64,000 bases of DNA, taken from assembly GCA_965247115.1 (NCBI GenBank), contig CBDFGR010000003.1:1856001-1920000 (forward strand), in the 5' to 3' direction. Source of the stretch: Myxococcota bacterium. GTDB taxonomy: Bacteria; Myxococcota_A; UBA9160; SZUA-336. Within the stretch, counting starts at the first letter, position 1. Each line of letters opens with the position of its first letter. The position numbers and the translations under genes are program-made. This document shows, piece by piece, positions 3 through 9,552 of the stretch. The notes beneath the pieces were generated by a model that saw only the letters and a list, made by a program, of their open reading frames with translations, did no database searches and had not been told where the DNA came from.

Positions 3-254
3 GTACTCCTTGCGAACCCTGCCGGGGCTTGCGCTGTCTGTGTCGGGGGCGACCCGAGCGCCGAGCTGAACCAGGGGCTCGATGCTGGCGTGATCGTCCT
101 GCTGGGCGTGATTGGCGTCGTCCTCTTGGGATTCGCCTCGTTGTTTCTCTTCTGGATGCGAAGGGCTGCCGTCCTGGAGGCCCAGGTCGCGCAGGTCGAT
201 CGAGCACTACAGAAGGACACGAGCTCGCCACGAGCCTCGCTGTCGACCACGTAG
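3..254 (+). CDS. 5'-truncated small membrane protein with CxxC (ACAVC) motif; paralogue of 6620..6892
   Basis: Manual translation from position 3 gives VLLANPAGACAVCVGGDPSAELNQGLDAGVIVLLGVIGVVLLGFASLFLFWMRR...STT, stop TAG at 252-254. Not in the ORF track. Confidence 0.7.
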   Translation, partial: VLLANPAGACAVCVGGDPSAELNQGLDAGVIVLLGVIGVVLLGFASLFLFWMRRAAVLEAQVAQVDRALQKDTSSPRASLSTT

Positions 255-263
255 GTTGCGCGA

Positions 264-1730
264 TTAGGCGAGACGCGCGGCCTGCTTGATCCTCTCCCAG
301 GCGTCCTCGCGGTGTGAGACCACGAAGAAGAACGCCATCGAAGCTGCGGCCAGCAGGTTCGCAACGCCCACCCGGACAATCCCCAGTTTCGCGATCACGC
401 CGGGCATCACCAGCGAGCCCACGAGTAAGAAGACGGCTTCGAGGATCGCGAAGAGCACGACGAGCACCGCCGCGGGGTGTCGCGAGTGCAGCTCTATCTC
501 GTGGACCAGCCACGTAACCACCGTTCCCACCACAGCGCACGCGCCGAAGTGCACGATGCTGAAGTAGGCGACGGCGCCGAGGTGCACCTCCGTGACCTCC
601 TCTGCCGGGACGCCTAGGAAGAGCACGCTGCCCATGAGCGACGGCGTGAAGAGCGACTGCCCGTCCAGCACGTCGGCGGCCAGGAAGAAGAGGGCCACCG
701 TGGAGCCGCCGATCGCGCCAGCGTAAAACGAGTCGAACAGGAAGTCGGCTAGGTTGTGCTTGAGACTGTCCTTCGCCGCCGAGCCATGGGCGAGCATGAA
801 GAAGAGAGCCATTGAACCTGCCGCAAGCAGGTTCGCGATCCCGACCCGGGCGATTCCGAGCCTCGCGATCACGCCGGGCATCGCCAGCGGGGCCATGGCG
901 AAGAAGCCTACTTCGATGATCGCAAAAAGAACGACGAGCACCTGGATGGGATGCCGCGAGTGCAGCTCGACCTCGTGAACCACCAGCGAGAGCCCCGCTC
1001 CAAGCGCAGCGAAGGCGGCAATGTGCACCACGCTGAAGTAAGCGACCGCGCCGAGGTGCACCTCCGTCACCTCTTCTGCCGCGGCACCGAGGAAGAGCAC
1101 GCTGCCCATGAGCGACGGTGTGAAGAGCGGCTGCCCGTCCAGGAGGTCAGCTACGAGGAAGAACGCCGCAACCGCTGAGCCGCCGAGCACACTCAGGCTG
1201 AGGGAGTCGAGAATGAGCTCGCGCGTGGTGCGCTTGAGCTTGTTCCAGGCCTCTGTGCGGTGGGAAAGCATGAAGAAGAGCGCCATCGTCCCGGCTGCCA
1301 GCAGGTTTGCGGCGGCGACCCGCGCCATTCCCAGGCGCGCGATCACCCCGGGCATCGCCAGGGGGGCCACCACGAAGAACGCCGCTTCGATCACCGCGAA
1401 GAGCACCACCAACACCACCACGGGATGGCGCGAGCGCAGCTCTACCTCGCGGACCAGCAAGGAGATTGCTCCACCAAGCGCGGTGAACGCGGCGATGTGC
1501 ACAATGCTGAAGTAGGCGACCGTGTCGAGCCGCACCTTCGCCACATCTTCTGCGGCAACGCCGTGGAACATCACGCTGCCTATCAGCGATGGCGTGAAGA
1601 ACGGCTGCGCGTCCAGGAGGTCGGCGATCAGGAAGAACAGGGCCACCGCCGAGCCACCGAGCACACCCACGTAGAGAGATTCGAAGAGGAACTCACCGCG
1701 GGTGGCGGGGATCGGGGCTCTGTCAGCCAT
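264..1730 (-). CDS. Polytopic membrane protein of three tandem 158-aa repeats, function unknown
   Basis: GGSxVAxFFL, PxFTPSLxGSV, YFSxVH, SRHP and ANLLAA each occur three times at a 474-nt period. Probable start MADRAP at 1730. Confidence 0.8.
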   Translation of the reverse strand: MADRAPIPATRGEFLFESLYVGVLGGSAVALFFLIADLLDAQPFFTPSLIGSVMFHGVAAEDVAKVRLDTVAYFSIVHIAAFTALGGAISLLVREVELRSRHPVVVLVVLFAVIEAAFFVVAPLAMPGVIARLGMARVAAANLLAAGTMALFFMLSHRTEAWNKLKRTTRELILDSLSLSVLGGSAVAAFFLVADLLDGQPLFTPSLMGSVLFLGAAAEEVTEVHLGAVAYFSVVHIAAFAALGAGLSLVVHEVELHSRHPIQVLVVLFAIIEVGFFAMAPLAMPGVIARLGIARVGIANLLAAGSMALFFMLAHGSAAKDSLKHNLADFLFDSFYAGAIGGSTVALFFLAADVLDGQSLFTPSLMGSVLFLGVPAEEVTEVHLGAVAYFSIVHFGACAVVGTVVTWLVHEIELHSRHPAAVLVVLFAILEAVFLLVGSLVMPGVIAKLGIVRVGVANLLAAASMAFFFVVSHREDAWERIKQAARLA

Positions 1731-1891: not shown

Positions 1892-2530
1892 ATGGCATTG
1901 CGTAAGAGTCTGCTCGGCTTCATCCTGATCCTTGCCGCCCTCGCGTTCGCGAAAGGTTCAGCGCGTGCGCAGGGCACGGCCCGAGGCGAGACGCTCTTCG
2001 AAATCTGCGCTACCTGCCACGGCGAGTACGGAGAGGGCATCCGGCTGTTCGCCGCACCTGCAATCGCGGGCATGGGCCAGTGGTACATCCAGGCACAGCT
2101 GGAGAAGTTCAGGACGGGCGCGCGCGGTGCGCATCCCGACGACGTCGAGGGGCTGCGCATGCGCCCGATGTCGCGAACCCTGCGGACCGAGGAGGACGTG
2201 GCGGAGGTCGCCGCGTACGTGGCGAGCCTCAGCGCCGTCTCGCTTCCGCGCTCTCTCGAGGGCGACCCCCAGAAGGGCAAGGTCCTCTACACCACATGTG
2301 CGACCTGCCATGGTGCGAACGGCGAGGGCAACCGGCAGCTCTTCGGTCCCTCGGTGAACCGCACCAGCGACTGGTACCTGCTCGAACAGCTCAAGAAATA
2401 CAAGTCTGGCGTGAGGGGCGGGAACCCCAAGGACACGACGGGCATCATGATGCGACCAATGGCCCTGGTGCTGCCCGACGAGCAGGCGATGCAGGACGTC
2501 GTCGCCTACATGATGACCCTCGCCGACTAG
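1892..2530 (+). CDS. Diheme cytochrome c (c4/c553-like)
   Basis: Signal peptide; two CATCH heme motifs; Met-containing distal motifs (MRPM twice). Confidence 0.9.
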   Translation: MALRKSLLGFILILAALAFAKGSARAQGTARGETLFEICATCHGEYGEGIRLFAAPAIAGMGQWYIQAQLEKFRTGARGAHPDDVEGLRMRPMSRTLRTEEDVAEVAAYVASLSAVSLPRSLEGDPQKGKVLYTTCATCHGANGEGNRQLFGPSVNRTSDWYLLEQLKKYKSGVRGGNPKDTTGIMMRPMALVLPDEQAMQDVVAYMMTLAD

Positions 2531-2542
2531 GATTCGAGTCAG

Positions 2543-2647
2543 ATGGCAAAGGAATACTCGGCGGATCAGATGGCAATCAGGTGGTTCATCGTCACGATCT
2601 TCGGAGCGGCCCTGTACATCGGGGCCGTGTTCTTCTTCGTGCTCTAG
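2543..2647 (+). CDS. 34-aa single-TM protein, putative small oxidase subunit
   Basis: MAKEYSADQMAIRWFIVTIFGAALYIGAVFFFVL*; fills the gap between the cytochrome c and coxII; below the ORF-track length cutoff. Confidence 0.7.
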   Translation: MAKEYSADQMAIRWFIVTIFGAALYIGAVFFFVL

Positions 2648-2657
2648 GTGAGGCGAG

Positions 2658-3350
2658 ATGATTGAGCGCTACGTCGAAGCAGCCTCTACATATGCCAGCG
2701 ACATCGACGACCTCGTCCTGCTCATCACTGTCCTCGTTGGCTTCTGGTTCCTCGTCTGCGAACTCCTCTTCTTTGGGTTGATCTTCCGCTTCCGAGCCAG
2801 GGAGGGAAGGCGAACCGAGTACGTGACCGGTGAGGAGAAGGAGCTCAAGCGCTGGATCACGATCCCCCACGCACTCGTTCTGATATGCGATGTCTTCATC
2901 ATCATCGCCGCGCTGCGGGTCTGGTACGAGGTCAAGCAGGCATTGCCGCCAGCTGACGAGACCGTGCGCGTGATCGCGCAGCAATGGGCGTGGACCTTCG
3001 TCCACCCGGGCCCCGACCGAGAGCTCGGTACAGCGGACGACATCGCAACGATCGACGAGCTCCACGTCAAGACGAACACGACCTATCACTACAAGCTCGA
3101 GGCTCGAGACGTGGTGCACAGCTTCTCCGTCCCGGTCTTCCGGCTCAAACAAGATGCCGTTCCAGGGCGGATCATCACTGGCTGGTTCGAGGCGACGAAG
3201 ACGGGCAGCTTTGACATCCAGTGCGCGGAGATTTGCGGGATCGGACACGCCCTCATGGGTGCTCGTATCTTCATCGAGACGCCCGAGCAACACGCGGCCT
3301 GGATGGAGGGACGACCCCTCGCGACTGTCGCCGCCCTGGCGGACAGGTAG
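2658..3350 (+). CDS. coxB: Cytochrome c oxidase subunit II (CuA)
   Basis: Two TM helices, QQWAW, DVVHSF and CuA motif CAEICGIGHALM. Confidence 0.93.
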   Translation: MIERYVEAASTYASDIDDLVLLITVLVGFWFLVCELLFFGLIFRFRAREGRRTEYVTGEEKELKRWITIPHALVLICDVFIIIAALRVWYEVKQALPPADETVRVIAQQWAWTFVHPGPDRELGTADDIATIDELHVKTNTTYHYKLEARDVVHSFSVPVFRLKQDAVPGRIITGWFEATKTGSFDIQCAEICGIGHALMGARIFIETPEQHAAWMEGRPLATVAALADR

Positions 3351-3371
3351 CGGGAGACCAGAAGGGGCGGC

Positions 3372-5075
3372 ATGACCGAGTCAGCTGACACTTCGACGGT
3401 CGCACACGAAACTCAGCACGAAGAGCTCGGCTTCGCGAGGACGTACATCTTCCCCACCGATCACAAGATGATCGGCATGCAGTACCTGTTCACCGGCATG
3501 ATCATGGCGCTGATTGGCGGCTTCATGTCCTACGTGTTTCGCATGCAGCTCGCCTTCCCTGGCATGGAGGTTCCGCTCTACGGGAACGTCACCGCGGCCA
3601 CCTACAACTTCCTGGTGACGAACCACGGCACCATCATGATCTTCTGGGTGGCCATGCCGGTGCTCCTGGCCTTCTTTGGGAATTTCTTGATCCCGCTGAT
3701 GATCGGCTGTGACGACATGGTGTTCCCGCGCATCAACCGGCTGTCCTACCAGGTCTTCTTCGTCAGTACGGTCGTTCTCATCACCTCCTTCTTTGTGCCG
3801 GGTGGTGGCTTCGGAGGCGGCTGGACGGCCTACCCACCTCTCTCTGCGCAGGCTGAGTACAGCCACACGCCGCTGGGATCCACGCTGTGGCTCGTAGCGG
3901 TCGCGTTGGAGTTTGTGGCCTTCCTGCTCGGCGGCATCAACTTCGTGACGACGGCCATGAACTCGCGCGCACCGGGGATGAAGTTCACGGATATTCCCAT
4001 GGTGGTCTGGACGATCGTGATCGGCAGCGTCCTCTTCATGGCGTCGATCGGCCCGCTGATCGCGGGCGCGATCATGTTGTTCATGGACCAGAATATCGGA
4101 ACGGGTTTCTACGACCCGACGGGCGTCGGCGATCCTTTGCTCTGGCAGCACCTGTTCTGGTTCTTCGGGCATCCCGAAGTGTATGTCGTCCTGCTCCCGG
4201 CCCTTGGCATCACGGCGGAGGTAATGTGCGTGTTTGCGCGCAAGAAGCTCTTTGCCTACCGCGTGGTTCTCCTCACCCTCTTTGGTACGGCTATCCTGAG
4301 CTTCTTCGTCTGGGCGCATCACCAGTTCATAGCGGGCATCGACCCGCGCATGGCCAATATCTTTACCGTCACCACGGTGCTGATCTCCATCCCGCTCGCC
4401 GAGCTCTGCTTCGTCTACATTGCGACCCTCTACGGCGGGTCGATCACCCTCACGACCCCCATGCTGTGGGCGCTGGCTTTCATTGCGGAATTCCTGATTG
4501 GGGGGGTGACCGGCATCTACCTCGGCGCGAGCGGCACCGACATCTACTTCCACGACACCTACTTCGTGCTTGCCCACTTCCACTACACGTTCTTCCCGAT
4601 CGCGATCATCGGTGTCTTTGCCGGGATTACGTTCTGGTACCCCAAGATGTTCGGCCGGATGATGAACGACCTGGTGGGCAGGATTCACTTCTGGGGCACG
4701 ATCATCCCCTTCAACTTCATCTTCATTCCCCTCTTTGTCCTGGGCGCCGCGGGCCAGCACCGGCGGATCTACGACTACACGCACTTCCCGGACCTGGCGA
4801 CTCCCGCGTTTCAGGACATGCGAGTGTTCGCCACGCTGTCGCTGGTCGTGATGCTGTTCTTCCAGGGCGTGTTCCTGCTGAACTTCTTCGTCAGCTTGTG
4901 GAGAGGTGCGCCGGCCCCGCGGAACCCCTGGAGGTCGAATACGCTCGAGTGGACAGCTCCTTCGCCGCCGCCGCACGGGAACTTCGCGGAGCTCCCGAAC
5001 GTCTATCGCGGACCGTACGAGTACGGCGTCCCCGGTCGCGAGGATGACTACTTTCCGCAAGACGTTCCGGCTTGA
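3372..5075 (+). CDS. coxA: Heme-copper oxidase subunit I, A-family-like with atypical K-channel helix
   Basis: TDHKMIG, NHGTIM, DMVFPRIN, WFFGHPEVY, WAHHQF, HDTYFVLAHFHY, RR and NPW..TLEW motifs. Confidence 0.95.
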   Translation: MTESADTSTVAHETQHEELGFARTYIFPTDHKMIGMQYLFTGMIMALIGGFMSYVFRMQLAFPGMEVPLYGNVTAATYNFLVTNHGTIMIFWVAMPVLLAFFGNFLIPLMIGCDDMVFPRINRLSYQVFFVSTVVLITSFFVPGGGFGGGWTAYPPLSAQAEYSHTPLGSTLWLVAVALEFVAFLLGGINFVTTAMNSRAPGMKFTDIPMVVWTIVIGSVLFMASIGPLIAGAIMLFMDQNIGTGFYDPTGVGDPLLWQHLFWFFGHPEVYVVLLPALGITAEVMCVFARKKLFAYRVVLLTLFGTAILSFFVWAHHQFIAGIDPRMANIFTVTTVLISIPLAELCFVYIATLYGGSITLTTPMLWALAFIAEFLIGGVTGIYLGASGTDIYFHDTYFVLAHFHYTFFPIAIIGVFAGITFWYPKMFGRMMNDLVGRIHFWGTIIPFNFIFIPLFVLGAAGQHRRIYDYTHFPDLATPAFQDMRVFATLSLVVMLFFQGVFLLNFFVSLWRGAPAPRNPWRSNTLEWTAPSPPPHGNFAELPNVYRGPYEYGVPGREDDYFPQDVPA

Positions 5076-5096
5076 TGCGCAGGTGCCGATGAGAGA

Positions 5097-5666
5097 ATGA
5101 GACCGATTGCAACGACACGGAGCGCGGCCGGGATCCCCACGGGTCGTCTCGCAGTCTGGTGGGTCCTCGCGTCGGAGATCGTCATCTTCGGCGGCTTGCT
5201 CGCGTCCTACATCATGTACCGCCTGGCGCACGACGCCTGGGCCGACCACGCAGCACACACGAACCTGGTCGCAGGGAGCTTCAACACGCTGGTCCTCCTC
5301 ACGTCCAGCTTGACGGCCGTGCTCGCTCACAAGGCGGCAGACGAGAGCGACGGGCCGCGAGCTGCGCGTCTACTGACCTTCACGATGCTTGGCGGCGCGA
5401 CCTTCGTCATCGTGAAGGCCTTCGAGTGGACGGCCGAGATCCAGGCCGGCTACACGATCACGGCGAACACGTTCTGGTCGTTCTACTACACCGCGGCGGG
5501 CCTCCATGGCTTACACGTGATCGTGGGTGTGATCATCATGGGCTTCGTCGCCTGGGATGCGAGAAAGGGCAGGGAGCTTCACCGCGTCGAGCTGATCGGC
5601 ATCTACTGGCACTTCGTCGACATCGTGTGGATCTTCCTATTCCCACTGCTCTACATCGCGAGGTAG
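5097..5666 (+). CDS. coxC: Cytochrome c oxidase subunit III family (short form)
   Basis: LASEIVIFGGL, NTLVLLTSS, GLHGLHV, YWHFVDIVWIFLFPLLY. Confidence 0.9.
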   Translation: MRPIATTRSAAGIPTGRLAVWWVLASEIVIFGGLLASYIMYRLAHDAWADHAAHTNLVAGSFNTLVLLTSSLTAVLAHKAADESDGPRAARLLTFTMLGGATFVIVKAFEWTAEIQAGYTITANTFWSFYYTAAGLHGLHVIVGVIIMGFVAWDARKGRELHRVELIGIYWHFVDIVWIFLFPLLYIAR

Positions 5667-5674
5667 CCCGAACC

Positions 5675-6004
5675 ATGTCCGAGATGCATCACCCTAGCTA
5701 CGTAAAGATCTGGGTAGCGCTCGTCATTCTGCTGGCGATCAGCGTTGCGGGTCCCTTCCTCGGGATCCGGATCGTGACGCTGATCACGGCATTCGGCATA
5801 GCCATCGTCAAGGCCTACCTCGTGGCGAGAAACTTCATGCACCTGAACATCGAGAAACGGTACGTGGTGTACCTGCTCTCGACGGTCCTCGCCTTCATGC
5901 TGCTCTTCTTCTTCGGCGTCGCGCCAGACGTGATGAAACAAGAGGGCCAGGGCTGGATCAAGCCACCCGTCGAGTCCGCAAGCGCGGGGGAAACGGGCCA
6001 CTAG
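5675..6004 (+). CDS. Cytochrome c oxidase subunit IV family (prokaryotic)
   Basis: MSEMHHPSYVKIW...KAYLVARNFMHL; three TM segments; ATG at 5675. Confidence 0.85.
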   Translation: MSEMHHPSYVKIWVALVILLAISVAGPFLGIRIVTLITAFGIAIVKAYLVARNFMHLNIEKRYVVYLLSTVLAFMLLFFFGVAPDVMKQEGQGWIKPPVESASAGETGH

Positions 6005-6021
6005 CTCCGCAGAGGCTACGC

Positions 6022-6609
6022 ATGTACGAGAAGACCCTGGAGACCCTTACTGGTGCGCCGCGGCACCCCCAGCTCGTCTCCAACGCCGTTCTCGGAATGC
6101 TGATGTTCGTCATCGTGGAGGCGATGCTGTTTGCCGGGCTGATCAGCGCCTTCATGATCGTCAAGACGTCGTCGCTAGGCGCGTGGCCCCCGCCGGGCCA
6201 GGCCCGTCTTCCCGTCGAGGAGACGGCCCTCAATACCGTCGCGTTGCTCATCAGCGGGCTCATGCTCTTCGTTGCGCACCGAGCCTTCAGACGCGCGCCG
6301 GAGAGCGCGAGAGTGCCGCTCATGGTCTCCATCCTGCTCGGCGCGATCTTCGTCATCTTTCAGGGCGTCGAGTGGGCTGCCCTCATCCGCGAGGGTCTGA
6401 CCTTGACCTCGAGCACACATGGCGGATTCTTCTACCTGATCGTCGGGCTGCATGCCCTGCACGTCGTCGCCGCGCTGATCGTCCTGACGTACGCATGGCT
6501 TCTGTTGCGCCAGGCCCGGCTCGCTCCCGCCACGTTCCACGCGACCCAGGTCTTCTGGTATTTTGTAGTCGGCCTCTGGCCGATCCTGTACGTTCAGGTG
6601 TACCTGTGA
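6022..6609 (+). CDS. Second cytochrome c oxidase subunit III family protein
   Basis: EAMLFAGLISA, NTVALLISG, GLHALHV, FWYFVVGLWPILY. Confidence 0.88.
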   Translation: MYEKTLETLTGAPRHPQLVSNAVLGMLMFVIVEAMLFAGLISAFMIVKTSSLGAWPPPGQARLPVEETALNTVALLISGLMLFVAHRAFRRAPESARVPLMVSILLGAIFVIFQGVEWAALIREGLTLTSSTHGGFFYLIVGLHALHVVAALIVLTYAWLLLRQARLAPATFHATQVFWYFVVGLWPILYVQVYL

Positions 6610-6619
6610 GGCTCCGTTC

Positions 6620-6892
6620 GTGAAGTGGTGGTCGGCTGCCCTGGTAGCAAGCGCTCTCCTGTGGGCCCCGCGGCTGGCTGAGGCCTGCGCGGTCTGCTTC
6701 TCCGGGACCGACGAGGTTCGCGACGCCTTCATCGTCACGACCGCCCTGCTGACCGCCCTCCCTCTCCTACTGATCGGCTCCCTCATCCTCTGGCTCCGCC
6801 ACCGCTTCCTCCGCCAAACGACCCAATCCACCCCCAGCCCGGCGCAGCGACGCCCGTCCCCAACTTCAGATTCCCAAGTTCAAATTCCGTAG
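6620..6892 (+). CDS. Small exported/membrane protein with ACAVC CxxC motif, last gene of the oxidase operon
   Basis: Signal peptide ending AEA, then CAVC, one TM helix and a basic stretch. Confidence 0.75.
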   Translation: MKWWSAALVASALLWAPRLAEACAVCFSGTDEVRDAFIVTTALLTALPLLLIGSLILWLRHRFLRQTTQSTPSPAQRRPSPTSDSQVQIP

Positions 6893-7018
6893 AGAACGGG
6901 CAACCCCCTACGAGGCTTGGCACCCATGCAAGCGCCGCGGAACGCGGCGCGCGCAGCGAAGGCCGTAGGCCTGAGCGGAGGTGGGTGGCCGCGGCCGCCC
7001 GCGGCCGGGTCCCACAAG
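6861..7018 (+). repeat. REP/MITE-like multi-hairpin element, copy A
   Basis: GCAAGCGCCGCG...GCGCGCAGCGAAGG...GGTGGGTGG-hairpin-GGGTCCCACAAG core shared with the other copies. Confidence 0.85.
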
Positions 7019-7019
7019 A

Positions 7020-7793
7020 CTAGATTCCGGAGCCGTCTCTCTCGTAGCCGACGTGGATGCCGCACTCTCGAGAGCTATCCCGCTCCCACCACCAGCGTCC
7101 AGCACGTTCATCCTCGCCAGGCTTGATGGCGCGCGAGCAGGGCGCGCAACCGACCGACGGGTAGCCACGAGCGTGCAGCGCATTCACCGGGAGGCCGCGG
7201 TCGTGCACGTACTGCTCCACGTCATCCCTGCTCCAGCTCGCGAGCGGGTTGAGCTTGATGCGTCCGCCGTGGATATGGTCGACCTCTACGGATCGCACGT
7301 CTGCTCGGGCCTTGCTGTGCTCCGGACGTAGGCCCGCGACCCAGGCATCCAGGCCGGCGAGGGCGCGGTCCAGCGCTGCCACCTTGCGGACTCCGCAACA
7401 GAGCTCGCGCTTTTCCTTGGACTCGAAGAACAGGTTGTGTCCGTGCTTGCGCACCATTGCCTCGACACGTTCGTGCTCTGGAAAGTGGATCTCGACCTCG
7501 ATCCCGTAGCGGTCCCGGACCCGATCCATCAGGTCGTAGGTCTCCTGGGGAAGACGTCCTGTGTCGATCGAAAAGACCCGCGTCCGCTCTGGGTCAATCC
7601 GGTGCATCAGGTCGAGGATGACCATGCCTTCCGGGGATCCGAAGCTGGCGGACAGGGCGATACGTGGAGCGAAGTTCTCGAATCCCCACGCCAGCAGGCG
7701 CTCCGCTGGCCACTCGTTCATCCCGCCGGAGCGAACCTGGGCGAGGGTCCGCTCCGGAAGGAGCTCCGTCCTTACGAGCTCGAGCTGCGGCAC
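7020..7793 (-). CDS. cysH: APS/PAPS reductase, 4Fe-4S (APS-type)
   Basis: SASFG, IDTG, CC (ELCCGVRK), SVGCAPCS, RECGIH; GTG at 7793 preceded by GGAGG. Confidence 0.9.
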   Translation of the reverse strand: MPQLELVRTELLPERTLAQVRSGGMNEWPAERLLAWGFENFAPRIALSASFGSPEGMVILDLMHRIDPERTRVFSIDTGRLPQETYDLMDRVRDRYGIEVEIHFPEHERVEAMVRKHGHNLFFESKEKRELCCGVRKVAALDRALAGLDAWVAGLRPEHSKARADVRSVEVDHIHGGRIKLNPLASWSRDDVEQYVHDRGLPVNALHARGYPSVGCAPCSRAIKPGEDERAGRWWWERDSSRECGIHVGYERDGSGI

Positions 7794-7978: not shown

Positions 7979-9304
7979 ATGGGCCTGTCCATGACTTCGA
8001 GCGCGGTCCTTGTCCTGTGGGCCTCTCTGTCTGGCGCTGGCAACCCTGCCGTCTGGGAGCCGGCGGTCAGCCTCGAAGACAGGTACCGGGCCGATGTGCT
8101 CGAGCCCGTCCGCCTGGATCAGGGCCCGGAAGACGTCCAGATTCTGCGAGAACCCGGGACGGCTAAATGGCCGGCCGGAACTCACGCCCTCCTGGAGCAG
8201 CGCATCCGCAGCGGCTGGGACCCGAATCAGCTCTACGGTCCCGTGTATTCCTCGGTCGGACTCTGGCTGCGGTACCCGCTGGTGACGGCGCGGATCGGTG
8301 GCCGGGTCCTCATCCCCGTCCTGGACCACGGGGCGCTCGGCGTTCGCGGGATCCTGGAGCCCCCCGGAAGCGGGCGCGGTCGCCGCGTGGTGATTCTCGT
8401 CGACACCTCGGAGAGCGCGAACGCCGCGGTTCCCCTGGCGGTCGGCTCAGTTGCGGGGCCGCTGTCGCTGCTCGAAGCGCAGCGCCGCGCGCTGGCCAAC
8501 CTGGTGTCGGGCGTTGCTGGACAGGACACCGAGTTCGGGATCATTGCGTTCGGCGAGGGAACCTGGACGGTTGTCGATCTCGGCGCACCGGAGGAGGAGA
8601 GGCGGCGGGGTCTGGCGCGCTTCGAGCAGGAGCATCCGAGAGGCGAGGGCCGCAGCGACGCCGTGTGTGCATTGTGGACTGCCGCCGACTGGTTGCGTCA
8701 GTCCCCGGACGGCGTGGACCGCGAGATCGTGCTCCTGACAGGTACGGACCTGCCCCACTCCGGGCGCTTCCTGCGCTGCTCGGACTCGCTCTGCGAGTCC
8801 GCCAAACGGACCTGCGATGCTGCACGAAACAGGACAGCCTGCCCGGCCAGTCACGAGTTCAGTCGGCTCGACGGTATCTCGGACATCACGCAGCTCGCGA
8901 GCTTCGGACGCGAGGTCCGGGGTGAGCTCGTCGTGACGCCCGTGATCTTCGGAGGCGATCGCAACCAGCGGCTCTACACCGAGGTGGCGCGCCGCACGGG
9001 CGGCCGTCTCGTACGTGTACCTTCCGCCCGTGGGCTCGAGGAGCTGCTCCCTGCCCTGGTCACGCGCAGCATCAGCGGCGTCTTCGCAACCAACCGGCAG
9101 AGCGGTATCCGGTCCGACGATCTGCTTGGCCCCGACGGCCGGCTCCTAGAGGGCCAGATCCCCCTGGTTCCCGGCGGTAACGACATCGAGCTCCGGATCG
9201 CCACCAACGGCGGCACCGCCGCGCTGTTCCGCTTCCACGTCTACTCCACCCCCGGACCCCACCCCCTAACCCCAATCGGCTCCGCATCCCCCCTCTCCCC
9301 CTAG
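7979..9304 (+). CDS. Putative exported vWA-domain protein
   Basis: RRVVILVDTSES MIDAS-like motif, FGIIAFG, REIVLLT; Cys-rich insert; start uncertain (7979 or 7991). Confidence 0.65.
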   Translation: MGLSMTSSAVLVLWASLSGAGNPAVWEPAVSLEDRYRADVLEPVRLDQGPEDVQILREPGTAKWPAGTHALLEQRIRSGWDPNQLYGPVYSSVGLWLRYPLVTARIGGRVLIPVLDHGALGVRGILEPPGSGRGRRVVILVDTSESANAAVPLAVGSVAGPLSLLEAQRRALANLVSGVAGQDTEFGIIAFGEGTWTVVDLGAPEEERRRGLARFEQEHPRGEGRSDAVCALWTAADWLRQSPDGVDREIVLLTGTDLPHSGRFLRCSDSLCESAKRTCDAARNRTACPASHEFSRLDGISDITQLASFGREVRGELVVTPVIFGGDRNQRLYTEVARRTGGRLVRVPSARGLEELLPALVTRSISGVFATNRQSGIRSDDLLGPDGRLLEGQIPLVPGGNDIELRIATNGGTAALFRFHVYSTPGPHPLTPIGSASPLSP

Positions 9305-9342
9305 CCCCTCCCCCAGCTCAAAGCCCCCCAAAAAGAAGTCAA

Positions 9343-9537
9343 GATTAAGGACCGTCCCCAAGTTCAGATTCCCATCGCCAAGTTCAGATTCCGCCCAGTC
9401 CAGATTCCGTACAGAACCGGCAACTCCTACGAGGCTTGGCACCCATGCAAGCGGCGCGAAGCGGCGCGCGCAGCGAAGGCCGCAGGCCTGAGCGGAGGTG
9501 GGTAGCGCGCGACCGCTCGCGCGCTGGGTCCCACAAG
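9343..9537 (+). repeat. REP/MITE-like element, copy B
   Basis: AAGGACCGTCCCCAAGTT...CTACGAGGCTTGGCACCCATGCAAG...GGGTCCCACAAG. Confidence 0.85.
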
Positions 9538-9552
9538 GACTAAGATCCCCTC

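Follow-up and report, generated by a model that had tools for sequence, protein, structure and literature searches.

An A1-type cytochrome oxidase operon whose subunit I lacks the K-channel lysine and may take up protons through a lysine-free path

It is a long-standing question why two proton channels are needed in A-family oxidases and whether the role of K362 is to carry protons or to compensate charge. For the laboratory enzyme, the accessible text of PMC7601700 reports that K362M abolishes oxidase activity and that peroxidase activity is retained. Lysine-less A1 groups have already been tabulated: a "KC channel" set (Elusimicrobia, Ca. Calescamantes HR19, and Methylacidiphilaceae) and Oligoflexia, with the A1 motif, a nonpolar residue at K354, and polar residues at cbb3-type positions (PMC8239418). 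Acidophilic iron oxidizers have lysine-less oxidases that are classed as A2 and reported to be deep-branching and that have lost K354 and E78 and kept the D channel, as far as the accessible parts of the two sources describe them (10.1101/2020.03.01.968255; PMC8239418). A COX3 doublet in one operon defines A1 subtype a-III, which is tabulated with a K channel (PMC8239418). The oxidase operon that we describe here belongs to a clade of 167 close CoxI homologs. Like the tabulated A1 groups, the clade has the A1 motif with a nonpolar residue at K354 and some polar residues at cbb3-type positions. Like the iron-oxidizer enzymes, it has lost K354 and E78 and kept the D channel, but those enzymes keep T351 (PMC8239418). 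Like a-III, the operon has two COX3 homologs, but the clade has no canonical K channel. Lysine-less A1 oxidases are thus already in print, but the residue pattern of the clade is not. That pattern (A at S291, M/L at K354, I/L at T351, V/I at S357, and Thr at H247) matches no row of the published table, whose columns do not cover E344, E180, or E373 and which does not place Myxococcota among the lysine-less (PMC8239418). Nature here combines the equivalent of K362M with T359I, S365V, and S299A and has dropped E101 as well, and the enzyme is apparently the only heme-copper oxidase that several near-complete genomes encode. The operon would let biochemists probe the need for two proton channels in a textbook enzyme.

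The window, which is the whole 64-kb stretch of DNA that we analyzed, carries at 1892 to 6892 eight ORFs on the plus strand, 8 to 21 nt apart, in this order:

1892..2530, plus strand: diheme c-type cytochrome, 212 aa, with two CxxCH motifs, an N-terminal signal-like segment, and two PF00034 stretches
2543..2647, plus strand: 34-aa single-helix membrane protein, with a hydrophobic ORF in the same gap of clade loci
2658..3350, plus strand: CoxII with a complete CuA site, the ligands aligned in 46 clade loci
3372..5075, plus strand: CoxI, A1 type, 567 aa, 12 helices, from alignment, profile matches, and an AlphaFold2 model
5097..5666, plus strand: short CoxIII, 189 aa (PF00510)
5675..6004, plus strand: CoxIV, 109 aa (PF03626 [COX4_pro] and TIGR02229, over the cutoff)
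6022..6609, plus strand: second short CoxIII, 195 aa (PF00510)
6620..6892, plus strand: 90-aa protein with a signal-like segment, a CxxC right behind it, and one membrane helix; a CxxC ORF recurs at this position

The ORFs and the Pfam/NCBIfam profiles agree with the preliminary description of this DNA, which had reported an eight-gene operon with a diheme cytochrome c, two short coxIII genes, and two microproteins. It had also called the operon unusual; with the coxIII doublet already defining subtype a-III, it is less odd than claimed. The eight-gene arrangement is kept in several phyla. The two CoxIII copies are about 31% identical to each other. Their doubling and shortness, and a diheme cytochrome c that is a protein of its own, set the operon off from canonical aa3. 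In each of the 46 clade loci that cover both genes, the diheme cytochrome c gene lies immediately 5' of CoxII, and its product is the likely electron donor to CuA. The gap before CoxII holds a hydrophobic ORF of 24 to 60 aa in 46/46 loci, and 23 of these ORFs could be aligned (mean identity, 41%). The 34-aa protein had zero matches in Pfam/NCBIfam, and its atlas matches fell below 0.9 and were annotated as hypothetical; it is probably a small oxidase subunit. A promoter scan gave no signal above chance.

We compared CoxI with the R. sphaeroides (Rs) enzyme 1M56 by a phmmer alignment, which is gap-free from helix VI to helix X at an offset of +17. The AlphaFold2 model (pLDDT, 89; pTM, 0.90) had its best fold matches in the aa3 oxidases of R. 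sphaeroides and P. denitrificans (1AR1), with TM scores of 0.86 to 0.87 and 38 to 39% identity; ba3 chains matched CoxI at only 1e-8. Like these canonical enzymes, CoxI keeps the six His, E269 (E286), and Y271 (Y288), together with the Mg-site D407/H411 and R481/R482 (Rs numbering). The active-site residues are invariant in the 167 clade sequences, the Tyr cofactor and the three CuB His without exception. Unlike the canonical enzymes, the clade replaces the K side. In CoxI we found S299 as A282, T359 as L342, K362 as L345, and S365 as V348, and nearby H300 as E283, M335 as Q318, and I361 as E344. The helix VIII part of these changes is as follows:

4383..4427, plus strand: helix VIII segment with S339 (A356), L342 (T359), E344 (I361), L345 (K362), V348 (S365), and Y349 (W366), from the alignment to Rs

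The by-eye reading of L, L, and V at the T359, K362, and S365 equivalents therefore holds in a proper alignment, which put no Lys or Thr at the K-channel positions. Misalignment is ruled out because the region aligns without gaps, and a pseudogene or sequencing error is ruled out by the 167 intact homologs (one frameshifted locus, L041, was excluded from residue counts). Homologs share both the substitutions and the operon. The K362 position is Lys in 0/167 clade sequences (Met in 134, Leu in 33) and Lys in 55 of 60 more distant A1 sequences, and bulky nonpolar residues (I/L342, M/L345, V/I348) occupy the old K path across the clade. The change of WAHHMF to WAHHQF is likewise borne out, as M335 aligns with Q318, a residue beside the CuB His pair that is present in 167/167. 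The helix VI sequence GITAEV is real in both of its changes, but Glu at the E283 position is common in ordinary oxidases: E or D stands there in 22 of 60 outgroup rows, and E in E. coli bo3, which rules out E283 as a novelty.

The entry Glu of subunit II had been reported as replaced, and we agree: E101 aligns with CoxII L63, a position that is Glu in 11 of 46 clade sequences versus 54 of 57 in the outgroup. Within the K-channel set of K362, T359, S299, Y288, and E101(II), Y288 is thus the sole survivor. The CuA ligands H154, C189, E191, C193, H197, and M200 are present in 46/46 CoxII sequences, again as in canonical aa3. CoxII also has new polar residues in TM2, H71 (45/46) and D78 (46/46). 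The new Glu beside the Lys position, E344, does exist and occurs in 165/167 clade CoxI sequences. However, on an ideal helix it points about 100 degrees away from the lysine face, and it is found in 0 of 120 sequences of an equally lysine-less sister clade. Thus, E344 does not account for the tolerance of lysine loss. E344 and H71 co-occur in 44 of 46 operons, and the sole CoxII without the His has Asp there, opposite Gln344. From this one double change and the expected geometry, E344 may pair with subunit II H71.

These residues raise an interface reading in which protons would enter between subunits I and II, from CoxII K64/R65 and H71 through E344, S339, and E373 to the heme a3 farnesyl hydroxyl and the Tyr. 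E373 was not listed in the preliminary description:

4488..4490, plus strand: E373 (Rs L390), helix IX carboxylate; E in 154, T in 12, and D in 1 of 167; Thr/Ser in 119 of 120 sister sequences

Near-invariance of E344, H71, D78, and E373 speaks for such an entry, as does the Q/D double change. But the lysine-less sister clade has neither E344 nor H71 (0/3); one clade locus (L007, from Puniceicoccaceae bacterium K14, which does not bear a MAG label) has Ile at 344, 12 clade sequences have Thr at 373, and the contact depends on that single double change and the expected geometry. We regard this route as improbable.

We scanned the 12 helices for polar gains and losses relative to 55 Lys-bearing sequences. 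Helix VII showed four polar gains and no losses, helix VIII showed four gains and four losses, and helix III showed five polar gains. The helix VII gains form a stripe at i+4 spacing:

4263..4301, plus strand: helix VII hydroxyl stripe at positions 298, T302, T306, and S310 (Rs P315, A319, I323, and G327)

Position 298 is Val in the window protein and Thr in 144 of 167 clade sequences. On helix VIII, S339 and Y349 are among the gains. Ser, Thr, or Tyr fills five or six of six cavity positions in 164/167 clade sequences and at most two in all 55 Lys-bearing ones, a count in which the positions were chosen after the alignment had been inspected and the relatives are not independent, so that the helix-wide scan is the sole unbiased test. 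P315, A319, and G327 are K-cavity positions, and they and A356 and W366 count among the residues that set the width or boundary of the K channel, in the accessible text of PMC10341450. By our own mapping of Rs numbers, A319 and G327 (T302 and S310 here) fall at H247 and Y255, which are tabulated as cbb3 channel residues; of the seven "KC channel" cbb3-type positions, three are polar in the window protein (E283, T302, and S310) (PMC8239418). Side chains were placed by alignment, an ideal helical wheel, and the published residue list. The helix VIII losses are accompanied by a Thr-Thr-Thr-Ser stripe that is new to helix VII and faces the same cavity by this placement. A row of Thr/Ser spaced i+4 may, however, also be a helix-packing motif. 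We take S339 to be at the ba3 S309 position.

We propose, at a probability of roughly 0.5, that this A1 oxidase reduces O2 and draws the protons for its chemistry along hydroxyl groups in the K cavity, with no lysine on the way; given O2 reduction, the helix VII route is somewhat favored. Electrons would pass from an ACIII-like complex to the diheme cytochrome c, CuA, heme a, and heme a3-CuB. Protons would enter by the helix VI acid (E/D283), ascend the helix VII stripe, and arrive at Y271 through S339/S310, much as the B and C families manage without the lysine. The protons to be pumped would keep to a D channel retuned by E180, the E344-H71 pair would be structural or electrostatic, and the product would be water, with the enzyme acting as an aa3-type cytochrome c oxidase. 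A lysine-free Ser/Thr/Tyr path for O2 reduction would be a likeness to B-family ba3 and C-family cbb3; unlike these, the enzyme retains the D channel, E286, the helix VI Tyr, and subunit III. B-type and C-type subunits and the C-type helix VII Tyr were not found, which sets it apart from both families. Of the different ion route suggested earlier, then, the concerted loss of canonical residues and the conserved new polar residues argue for a changed proton route.

The D channel had been described as kept, which is correct for its lower part, where D115, N104, N122, and N190 correspond to D132, N121, N139, and N207; these and the E286 equivalent are invariant across the clade. The upper part is altered, with F109 as W92, S197 as E180, S200 as A183, and S201 as F184, and W144Q and N140R (Rs numbering) are further D-side changes. 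The five polar gains of helix III also point to the D side. E180 is a second D-channel Glu:

3909..3911, plus strand: E180 (Rs S197); 167/167 clade and 120/120 sister sequences

S197 is among the D-channel boundary residues listed in the accessible text of PMC10341450. A literature search on an S197 acid variant or on the clade itself located nothing specific. E180 is thus present in 287/287 clade and sister sequences, and it is on their joint branch that neither T359 nor K362 remains. This fits a K side that is shut and one rebuilt D channel that would carry chemical and pumped protons over an E180/E269 two-carboxylate relay, and so do the reworked D side and the bulky residues in the K path. 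The sister clade packs the path further (F342, L282, and M349) and has only three to four hydroxyls, which would suit closure too. A 2020 preprint, in its accessible part, takes other lysine-less oxidases as D-channel only (10.1101/2020.03.01.968255). Yet five other lysine-less sequences lack E180, the CoxI of a neighboring operon among them, and the near-invariant hydroxyls at K-cavity positions would be left unexplained. We hold this account to be rather unlikely. Under it the enzyme would be a widespread A1 oxidase, the main respiratory terminus of many bacteria, and a natural single-channel A-family pump that runs the full O2 cycle on a two-Glu D channel, a possibility that we raise tentatively.

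The three near-invariant membrane carboxylates E344, E373, and E180 could also suggest O2 reduction coupled to Na+ rather than H+, and a Na+-pumping cbb3 oxidase has reportedly been described. The proton-type D-channel entry (D115, N104, N122, N190, and E269) is invariant, however, and Na+ coupling is very unlikely. The earlier idea of another coupling ion thus gained no support.

Carrier genomes speak to the substrate. In 9 of the 40 related genomes that carry the operon, no PF00115 gene was found besides this CoxI, and three of the nine are 100% complete. None of the nine has a bd oxidase, two (G035 and G017) match the AOX family weakly, at an E value of about 1e-9, and in the other seven neither was detected. 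ctaA is present in 39/40 carriers and ctaB in 40/40, with both in all nine. In G035 an ActA/ActB/ActC-like (ACIII-like) operon leads straight into the oxidase operon, and an ActC-like linkage recurs at a second locus (L016). The genome from which the window comes encodes a further oxidase, as well as a bd-like gene. From the sole-oxidase genomes, the missing bd oxidase, heme A synthase, and the ACIII-like linkage, the enzyme is most likely an O2 reductase rather than an NO reductase, with aerobic growth of the carriers as an assumption; on these sequence grounds it very probably reduces O2. The earlier suggestion of a different substrate is not supported: neither the Tyr nor any of the three CuB His varies, no other heme-copper oxidase was found in 9/40 genomes, and a source of NO was found in 1 of 10 genomes.

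A natural K362M enzyme could instead be a cytochrome c peroxidase, reducing H2O2 to water with protons from the D channel, or a slow oxidase. Met is the commonest residue at the K362 position, and K362M keeps peroxidase and loses oxidase activity (PMC7601700, accessible text). Under this reading, however, the seven genomes with neither bd nor AOX would have no O2 reductase, and the ACIII-like linkage also argues against it; we consider it highly unlikely. The new helix VIII Glu and the invariant Q318 beside the CuB His pair might point to an A-family-derived NO reductase. But Y271 is present in 167/167, unlike in the NO reductases described without a Tyr cofactor in the accessible text of PMC11214002, and none of the definitions of cNOR, qNOR, eNOR, bNOR, sNOR, gNOR, or nNOR applies. 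Of 10 genomes searched, one had nirK over the cutoff and none had nirS. An NO reductase is extremely unlikely. Replacement of the farnesylated heme by heme b3 is not supported, given ctaA and ctaB in all nine sole-oxidase genomes. That idea arose from the loss of T359 together with Q471L; few outgroup sequences have Gln at 471 either.

In a midpoint-rooted tree of 37 rows, which holds no B- or C-family outgroup, the clade grouped with Lys-bearing A1 sequences at 100/100. Its neighbors there are A1 enzymes with the Lys from Gemmatimonadota, Acidobacteriota, and Binatia, a placement unlike the deep branching reported for the iron-oxidizer enzymes. The joint branch of clade and sister also had 100/100 support. 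An ancestral absence of the K channel is not supported: the 37 rows call for at least four state changes, and relatives with the Lys fall to either side of the midpoint root. The second cox operon lies just upstream of the window, and its CoxI likewise lacks the lysine. Compared with the Elusimicrobia GWA2_38_7 row of the PMC8239418 table, this CoxI agrees in 9 of the 10 columns for subunit I; it joins the clade at only 94/75, in trees from which the named Elusimicrobia, HR19, and Methylacidiphilum sequences are absent. Clade, sister, and neighboring paralog would form a graded series of natural suppressors and point to a few residues that could be transplanted or removed.

Assembly genes had been reported as missing, which is correct within the operon, but ctaA, ctaB, and SCO lie 20 to 29 kb upstream of it, beyond the 64-kb window. 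Cox11 and Caa3_CtaG are absent from 5/5 genomes tested. The 90-aa CxxC protein is a candidate copper-delivery factor, and the microprotein offers a separate lead on copper delivery in bacteria without Cox11 and Caa3_CtaG. Of the 18 clade loci whose flank is long enough, 16 have a CxxC ORF 3' of the second coxIII, and the second cox operon ends in one too:

3..254, plus strand: 3' part of a homologous CxxC gene that ends the second cox operon, from homology to the 90-aa gene

The window CoxI is encoded within a cox operon whose coordinates are as follows.

1892 to 6892, plus strand: cox operon, 8 ORFs on the same strand with gaps of 8 to 21 nt, in the order diheme cytochrome c, 34-aa protein, CoxII, CoxI, CoxIII, CoxIV, second CoxIII, 90-aa protein
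3372 to 5075, plus strand: CoxI
6620 to 6892, plus strand: 90-aa CxxC protein, last gene of the operon

We aligned this CoxI by phmmer with R. sphaeroides subunit I (1M56), and the alignment was free of gaps across helices VI to X. In R. sphaeroides numbering, the six His, E286, Y288, D132, N121, N139, N207, D407, H411, and R481/R482 are kept. The replacements are S299 to Ala282, T359 to Leu342, K362 to Leu345, S365 to Val348, I361 to Glu344, and M335 to Gln318, while the position of the K-entry Glu of CoxII (E101) is Leu63. Thus, the individual residue calls of the preliminary description, which had proposed loss of the K channel, were correct. An AlphaFold2 model of CoxI has 12 long helices (pLDDT 89); in a fold comparison, it matched best with the aa3 enzymes of R. 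sphaeroides and P. denitrificans (TM 0.86 to 0.87). Judged by its sequences, the family belongs to A1 by motif and tree but fails the canonical K-channel test (K path as described in excerpts of PMC8361435). The helix VI acid, E283 (R. sphaeroides H300), had been presented as new, but an acid stands here in 22 of 60 outgroup rows (E or D) and also in E. coli bo3 (E), and thus it is no novelty. Its column is headed E292 in a published table (PMC8239418, excerpt). A third carboxylate, Glu373 in helix IX, was absent from the earlier list. The D channel, said to keep its residues, does so only in part: D132, N121, N139, N207, and E286 remain, but S197 is Glu180 in 167/167 clade rows listed, with further changes of S200 to Ala, S201 to Phe, and F109 to Trp, all at positions used to bound the D channel in the available part of PMC10341450.

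The CoxI pool consisted of the query, 119 other top protein-search matches (best 120 of 7994), and CoxI from locus searches, leaving out matches shorter than 380 aa (the frameshifted locus L041) and three duplicates from the window's own genome. Groups were defined by overall identity, not by feature: 167 rows at ≥64% (the clade, two rows of which are identical proteins), 3 at 50 to 64%, and 60 below. Of the 167 clade rows listed, 134 have Met and 33 have Leu at position 362; the T359 position is I, L, V, or M and the S299 position A, I, or V in every one. Proper alignment therefore bears out the absence of the K-channel Lys and Thr (0/167 at 362/359), with Lys in 55/60 distant rows. Among 150 further genomes sampled from the phylum of the window, 40 had a match at ≥68% identity, and residues were read in 29 of these carriers. 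A tree of 37 rows gives the clade 100/100 support and joins to it, also at 100/100, a sister clade, largely labeled Binatia, which has no Lys in 120/120 (matches P0121 to P0240), has Phe at T359, lacks Glu344, and keeps E180. A1 enzymes that bear Lys occur on either side of the midpoint root, and within this sample there are at least four changes between the Lys and non-Lys states. Thus, as read from the tree, the lysine loss is derived and recurrent.

Several side observations concern these relatives. The sister clade (loci L033, L040, and L017; P0121 to P0240) has an extra acid or amide in helix V (position 215, E in 96 and Q in 24), and its D412 is replaced by Gly in 111/120. In four loci (L021, L038, L043, and L066), A1 oxidases from Acidobacteriota and one proteobacterial MAG have also lost the lysine, in further separate events, and do not have E180; in L021, two CuB His ligands are replaced by Gln. 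The operon occurs at 69% identity in a record labeled Klebsiella pneumoniae MAG (L015), where label or bin may be wrong.

Lysine loss in A-family oxidases is already known as a theme. Excerpts of published work report lysine-less enzymes, as sequence observations, from acidophilic iron oxidizers (10.1101/2020.03.01.968255) and lysine-less A1 oxidases from Elusimicrobia, HR19, Methylacidiphilum, and Bacteriovorax (PMC8239418). However, the residue pattern of the clade matches no row in the available parts of the latter's supplementary Tables 1 and 3 and Data Sheet 2. A literature search, largely outside subscription journals, found neither a paper on this clade nor biochemical work on any lysine-less A1 enzyme. 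The clade is a genuine and widespread A1 oxidase variant, apparently uncharacterized. Many members (P0007, P0010, and others) bear the NCBI name "cbb3-type cytochrome c oxidase subunit I"; this misnaming may have kept the clade from notice.

Window-type CoxI is the sole PF00115 gene in 9 of the 40 carriers (G051, G147, G112, G087, G035, G017, G150, G106, and G141). These genomes are 90 to 100% complete; residues were read in six, and three were assigned by identity. A bd oxidase had no match in any of the nine. An alternative oxidase (AOX-family) had a weak match in two and none in seven, in a search with no positive among its control genomes. We found ctaA in 39/40 and ctaB in 40/40 carriers, and both in all nine sole-oxidase genomes. 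Heme A serves heme-copper oxidases, so this oxidase would probably carry heme A. In G035 (L118:2478-10347), an ActA/ActB/ActC-like operon of ACIII layout (multiheme cytochrome c, molybdopterin-like/FeS fusion, NrfD-family protein) lies directly upstream and runs into the oxidase operon; such an operon is also present in the window's own genome (L119:5131-12355). An NrfD-family gene was found in 5/5 genomes tested and bc1 cytochrome b in one of the five, with none in the other four, the window's own included. We consider the enzyme to be an aa3-like O2 reductase, with a probability of about 0.88; this estimate assumes that these organisms respire O2, a gene missing from a draft genome may still exist in the organism, and relatives are not independent. 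The suggestion of another substrate or ion fares less well. Reduction of NO is unlikely, as an NO source is rare (nirK above the cutoff in 1/10 genomes tested, nirS in 0/10) and the Tyr cofactor missing from NORs (PMC11214002, excerpt) is invariant in the clade. A peroxidase-only function is also improbable, although K362M retains peroxidase activity (PMC7601700, excerpt), and Na+ coupling likewise has low odds. With the sole-oxidase genomes and the few replacement residues listed here, a mechanistic question of long standing can be tested directly.

Each of the 12 helices was scanned for positions at which the clade has gained or lost a polar residue relative to 55 Lys-bearing sequences. Helix VIII has four losses (342, 345, 346, and 348) and four gains (329, S339, E344, and Y349). 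Helix VII has four gains and no losses, the gains being spaced four apart on one face: T298 (144/167 clade rows listed; Val in the window), T302 (165), T306 (165), and S310 (166). Window positions 298, 302, 310, 339, and 349 correspond to R. sphaeroides P315, A319, G327, A356, and W366, which the available part of PMC10341450 lists among the residues that set the width or boundary of the K channel; by our mapping, cbb3 channel residues H247 and Y255 fall at A319 and G327 (PMC8239418 table, excerpt). At six cavity positions, picked after the alignment had been viewed, 164/167 clade rows have five or six hydroxyl residues; sister rows have three or four, apart from one with five, and Lys-bearing rows no more than two. 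Our best reading is that the path of the chemical protons has shifted from helix VIII to helix VII within the same cavity. Protons would enter near E/D283 and follow helix VII to Y271 via S310/S339. The main alternative is that the K side is closed and all protons take the D channel: the old K path is filled by bulky side chains, helix III has five polar gains, and E180 is common to 287/287 clade and sister rows listed. However, E180 is missing from five other lysine-less sequences. Besides the helix VII path that we prefer, E344 deserves mention: an ideal helix puts it ~100 degrees around from the site of the Lys, on the side that we take to face subunit II. CoxII TM2 has a new His71 in 45/46; in the remaining one, Asp replaces this His and position 344 is Gln. 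This one double change hints at a buried E344-His71 ion pair, no more; one other clade member combines Ile344 with His71.

The order cytochrome c-microprotein-coxII-coxI-coxIII-coxIV-coxIII is kept across clade loci as far as each extends, in records labeled Myxococcota, Gemmatimonadota, Bdellovibrionota, Verrucomicrobiota, and Eisenbacteria; thus, homologues share both the substitutions and the operon. Two points make this operon more ordinary than had been supposed. A COX3 doublet already defines A1 subtype a-III (PMC6431628, excerpt), and assembly genes, of which the operon was said to have no recognizable ones, sit upstream of it (ctaA and ctaB at ~28 to 29 kb, SCO at ~20 kb). The 34-aa ORF has a counterpart in 46/46 loci containing both flanking genes (a raw count, with no shuffled baseline); 23 of these align, at 41% mean identity, and the protein is probably a single-helix subunit. 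The 90-aa protein has a signal-like segment, a CxxC immediately after it (at the predicted mature N terminus), and one membrane helix. A CxxC-type ORF follows the second coxIII in 16/18 clade loci with sufficient flank and in 5/8 nonclade loci, and the protein also terminates Lys-bearing cox operons (L051, L061, L065, and L076). Neither of the known CuB factors Cox11 and Caa3_CtaG (PMC9145763, excerpt) was found in 5/5 genomes tested, from which we infer that the CxxC protein is a candidate copper donor to CuB. A GC-rich intergenic element lies behind the operon (6895-7020), and a related one occurs on the opposite strand near 9400 (9300-9550); the two were detected solely because their spurious ORF translations are alike.

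Immediately upstream, another cox operon (coxII, coxI, coxIII, coxIV, and CxxC gene; L082:15789-19755, about 1852300-1856250 of G000:C3) ends at window position 254, with the 3' part of its CxxC gene at 3-254 (plus strand). The CoxI of this second operon is 42% identical to window CoxI, with K362 replaced by Ile, S299 lost, and Ser at 359; the CoxII Glu is kept. It agrees with the Elusimicrobia GWA2_38_7 row in 9/10 subunit I columns of the PMC8239418 table (excerpt). These two lysine-less CoxI genes are the only PF00115 genes in the window's 98% complete genome. Between the two operons, a very hydrophobic 488-aa protein with three internal repeats (264-1730, minus strand) has no match in Pfam or NCBIfam and has weak homologues close to cox operons in L050 and L053. 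Farther upstream, L082:9884-14839 (minus strand) holds a gene whose 584-aa product resembles bd-oxidase subunit I (PF01654, E 4e-18), clustered with genes for three membrane cytochromes c, one of which carries a fused ethylbenzene-dehydrogenase heme b domain; the cluster presumably resembles the bd-like clusters of Nitrospira. At L082:7773-9887 (minus strand), among heme-biosynthesis and radical SAM genes, one protein combines two Usp stretches with repeats of a small PCP_red domain and a CxxC...CxxC motif.
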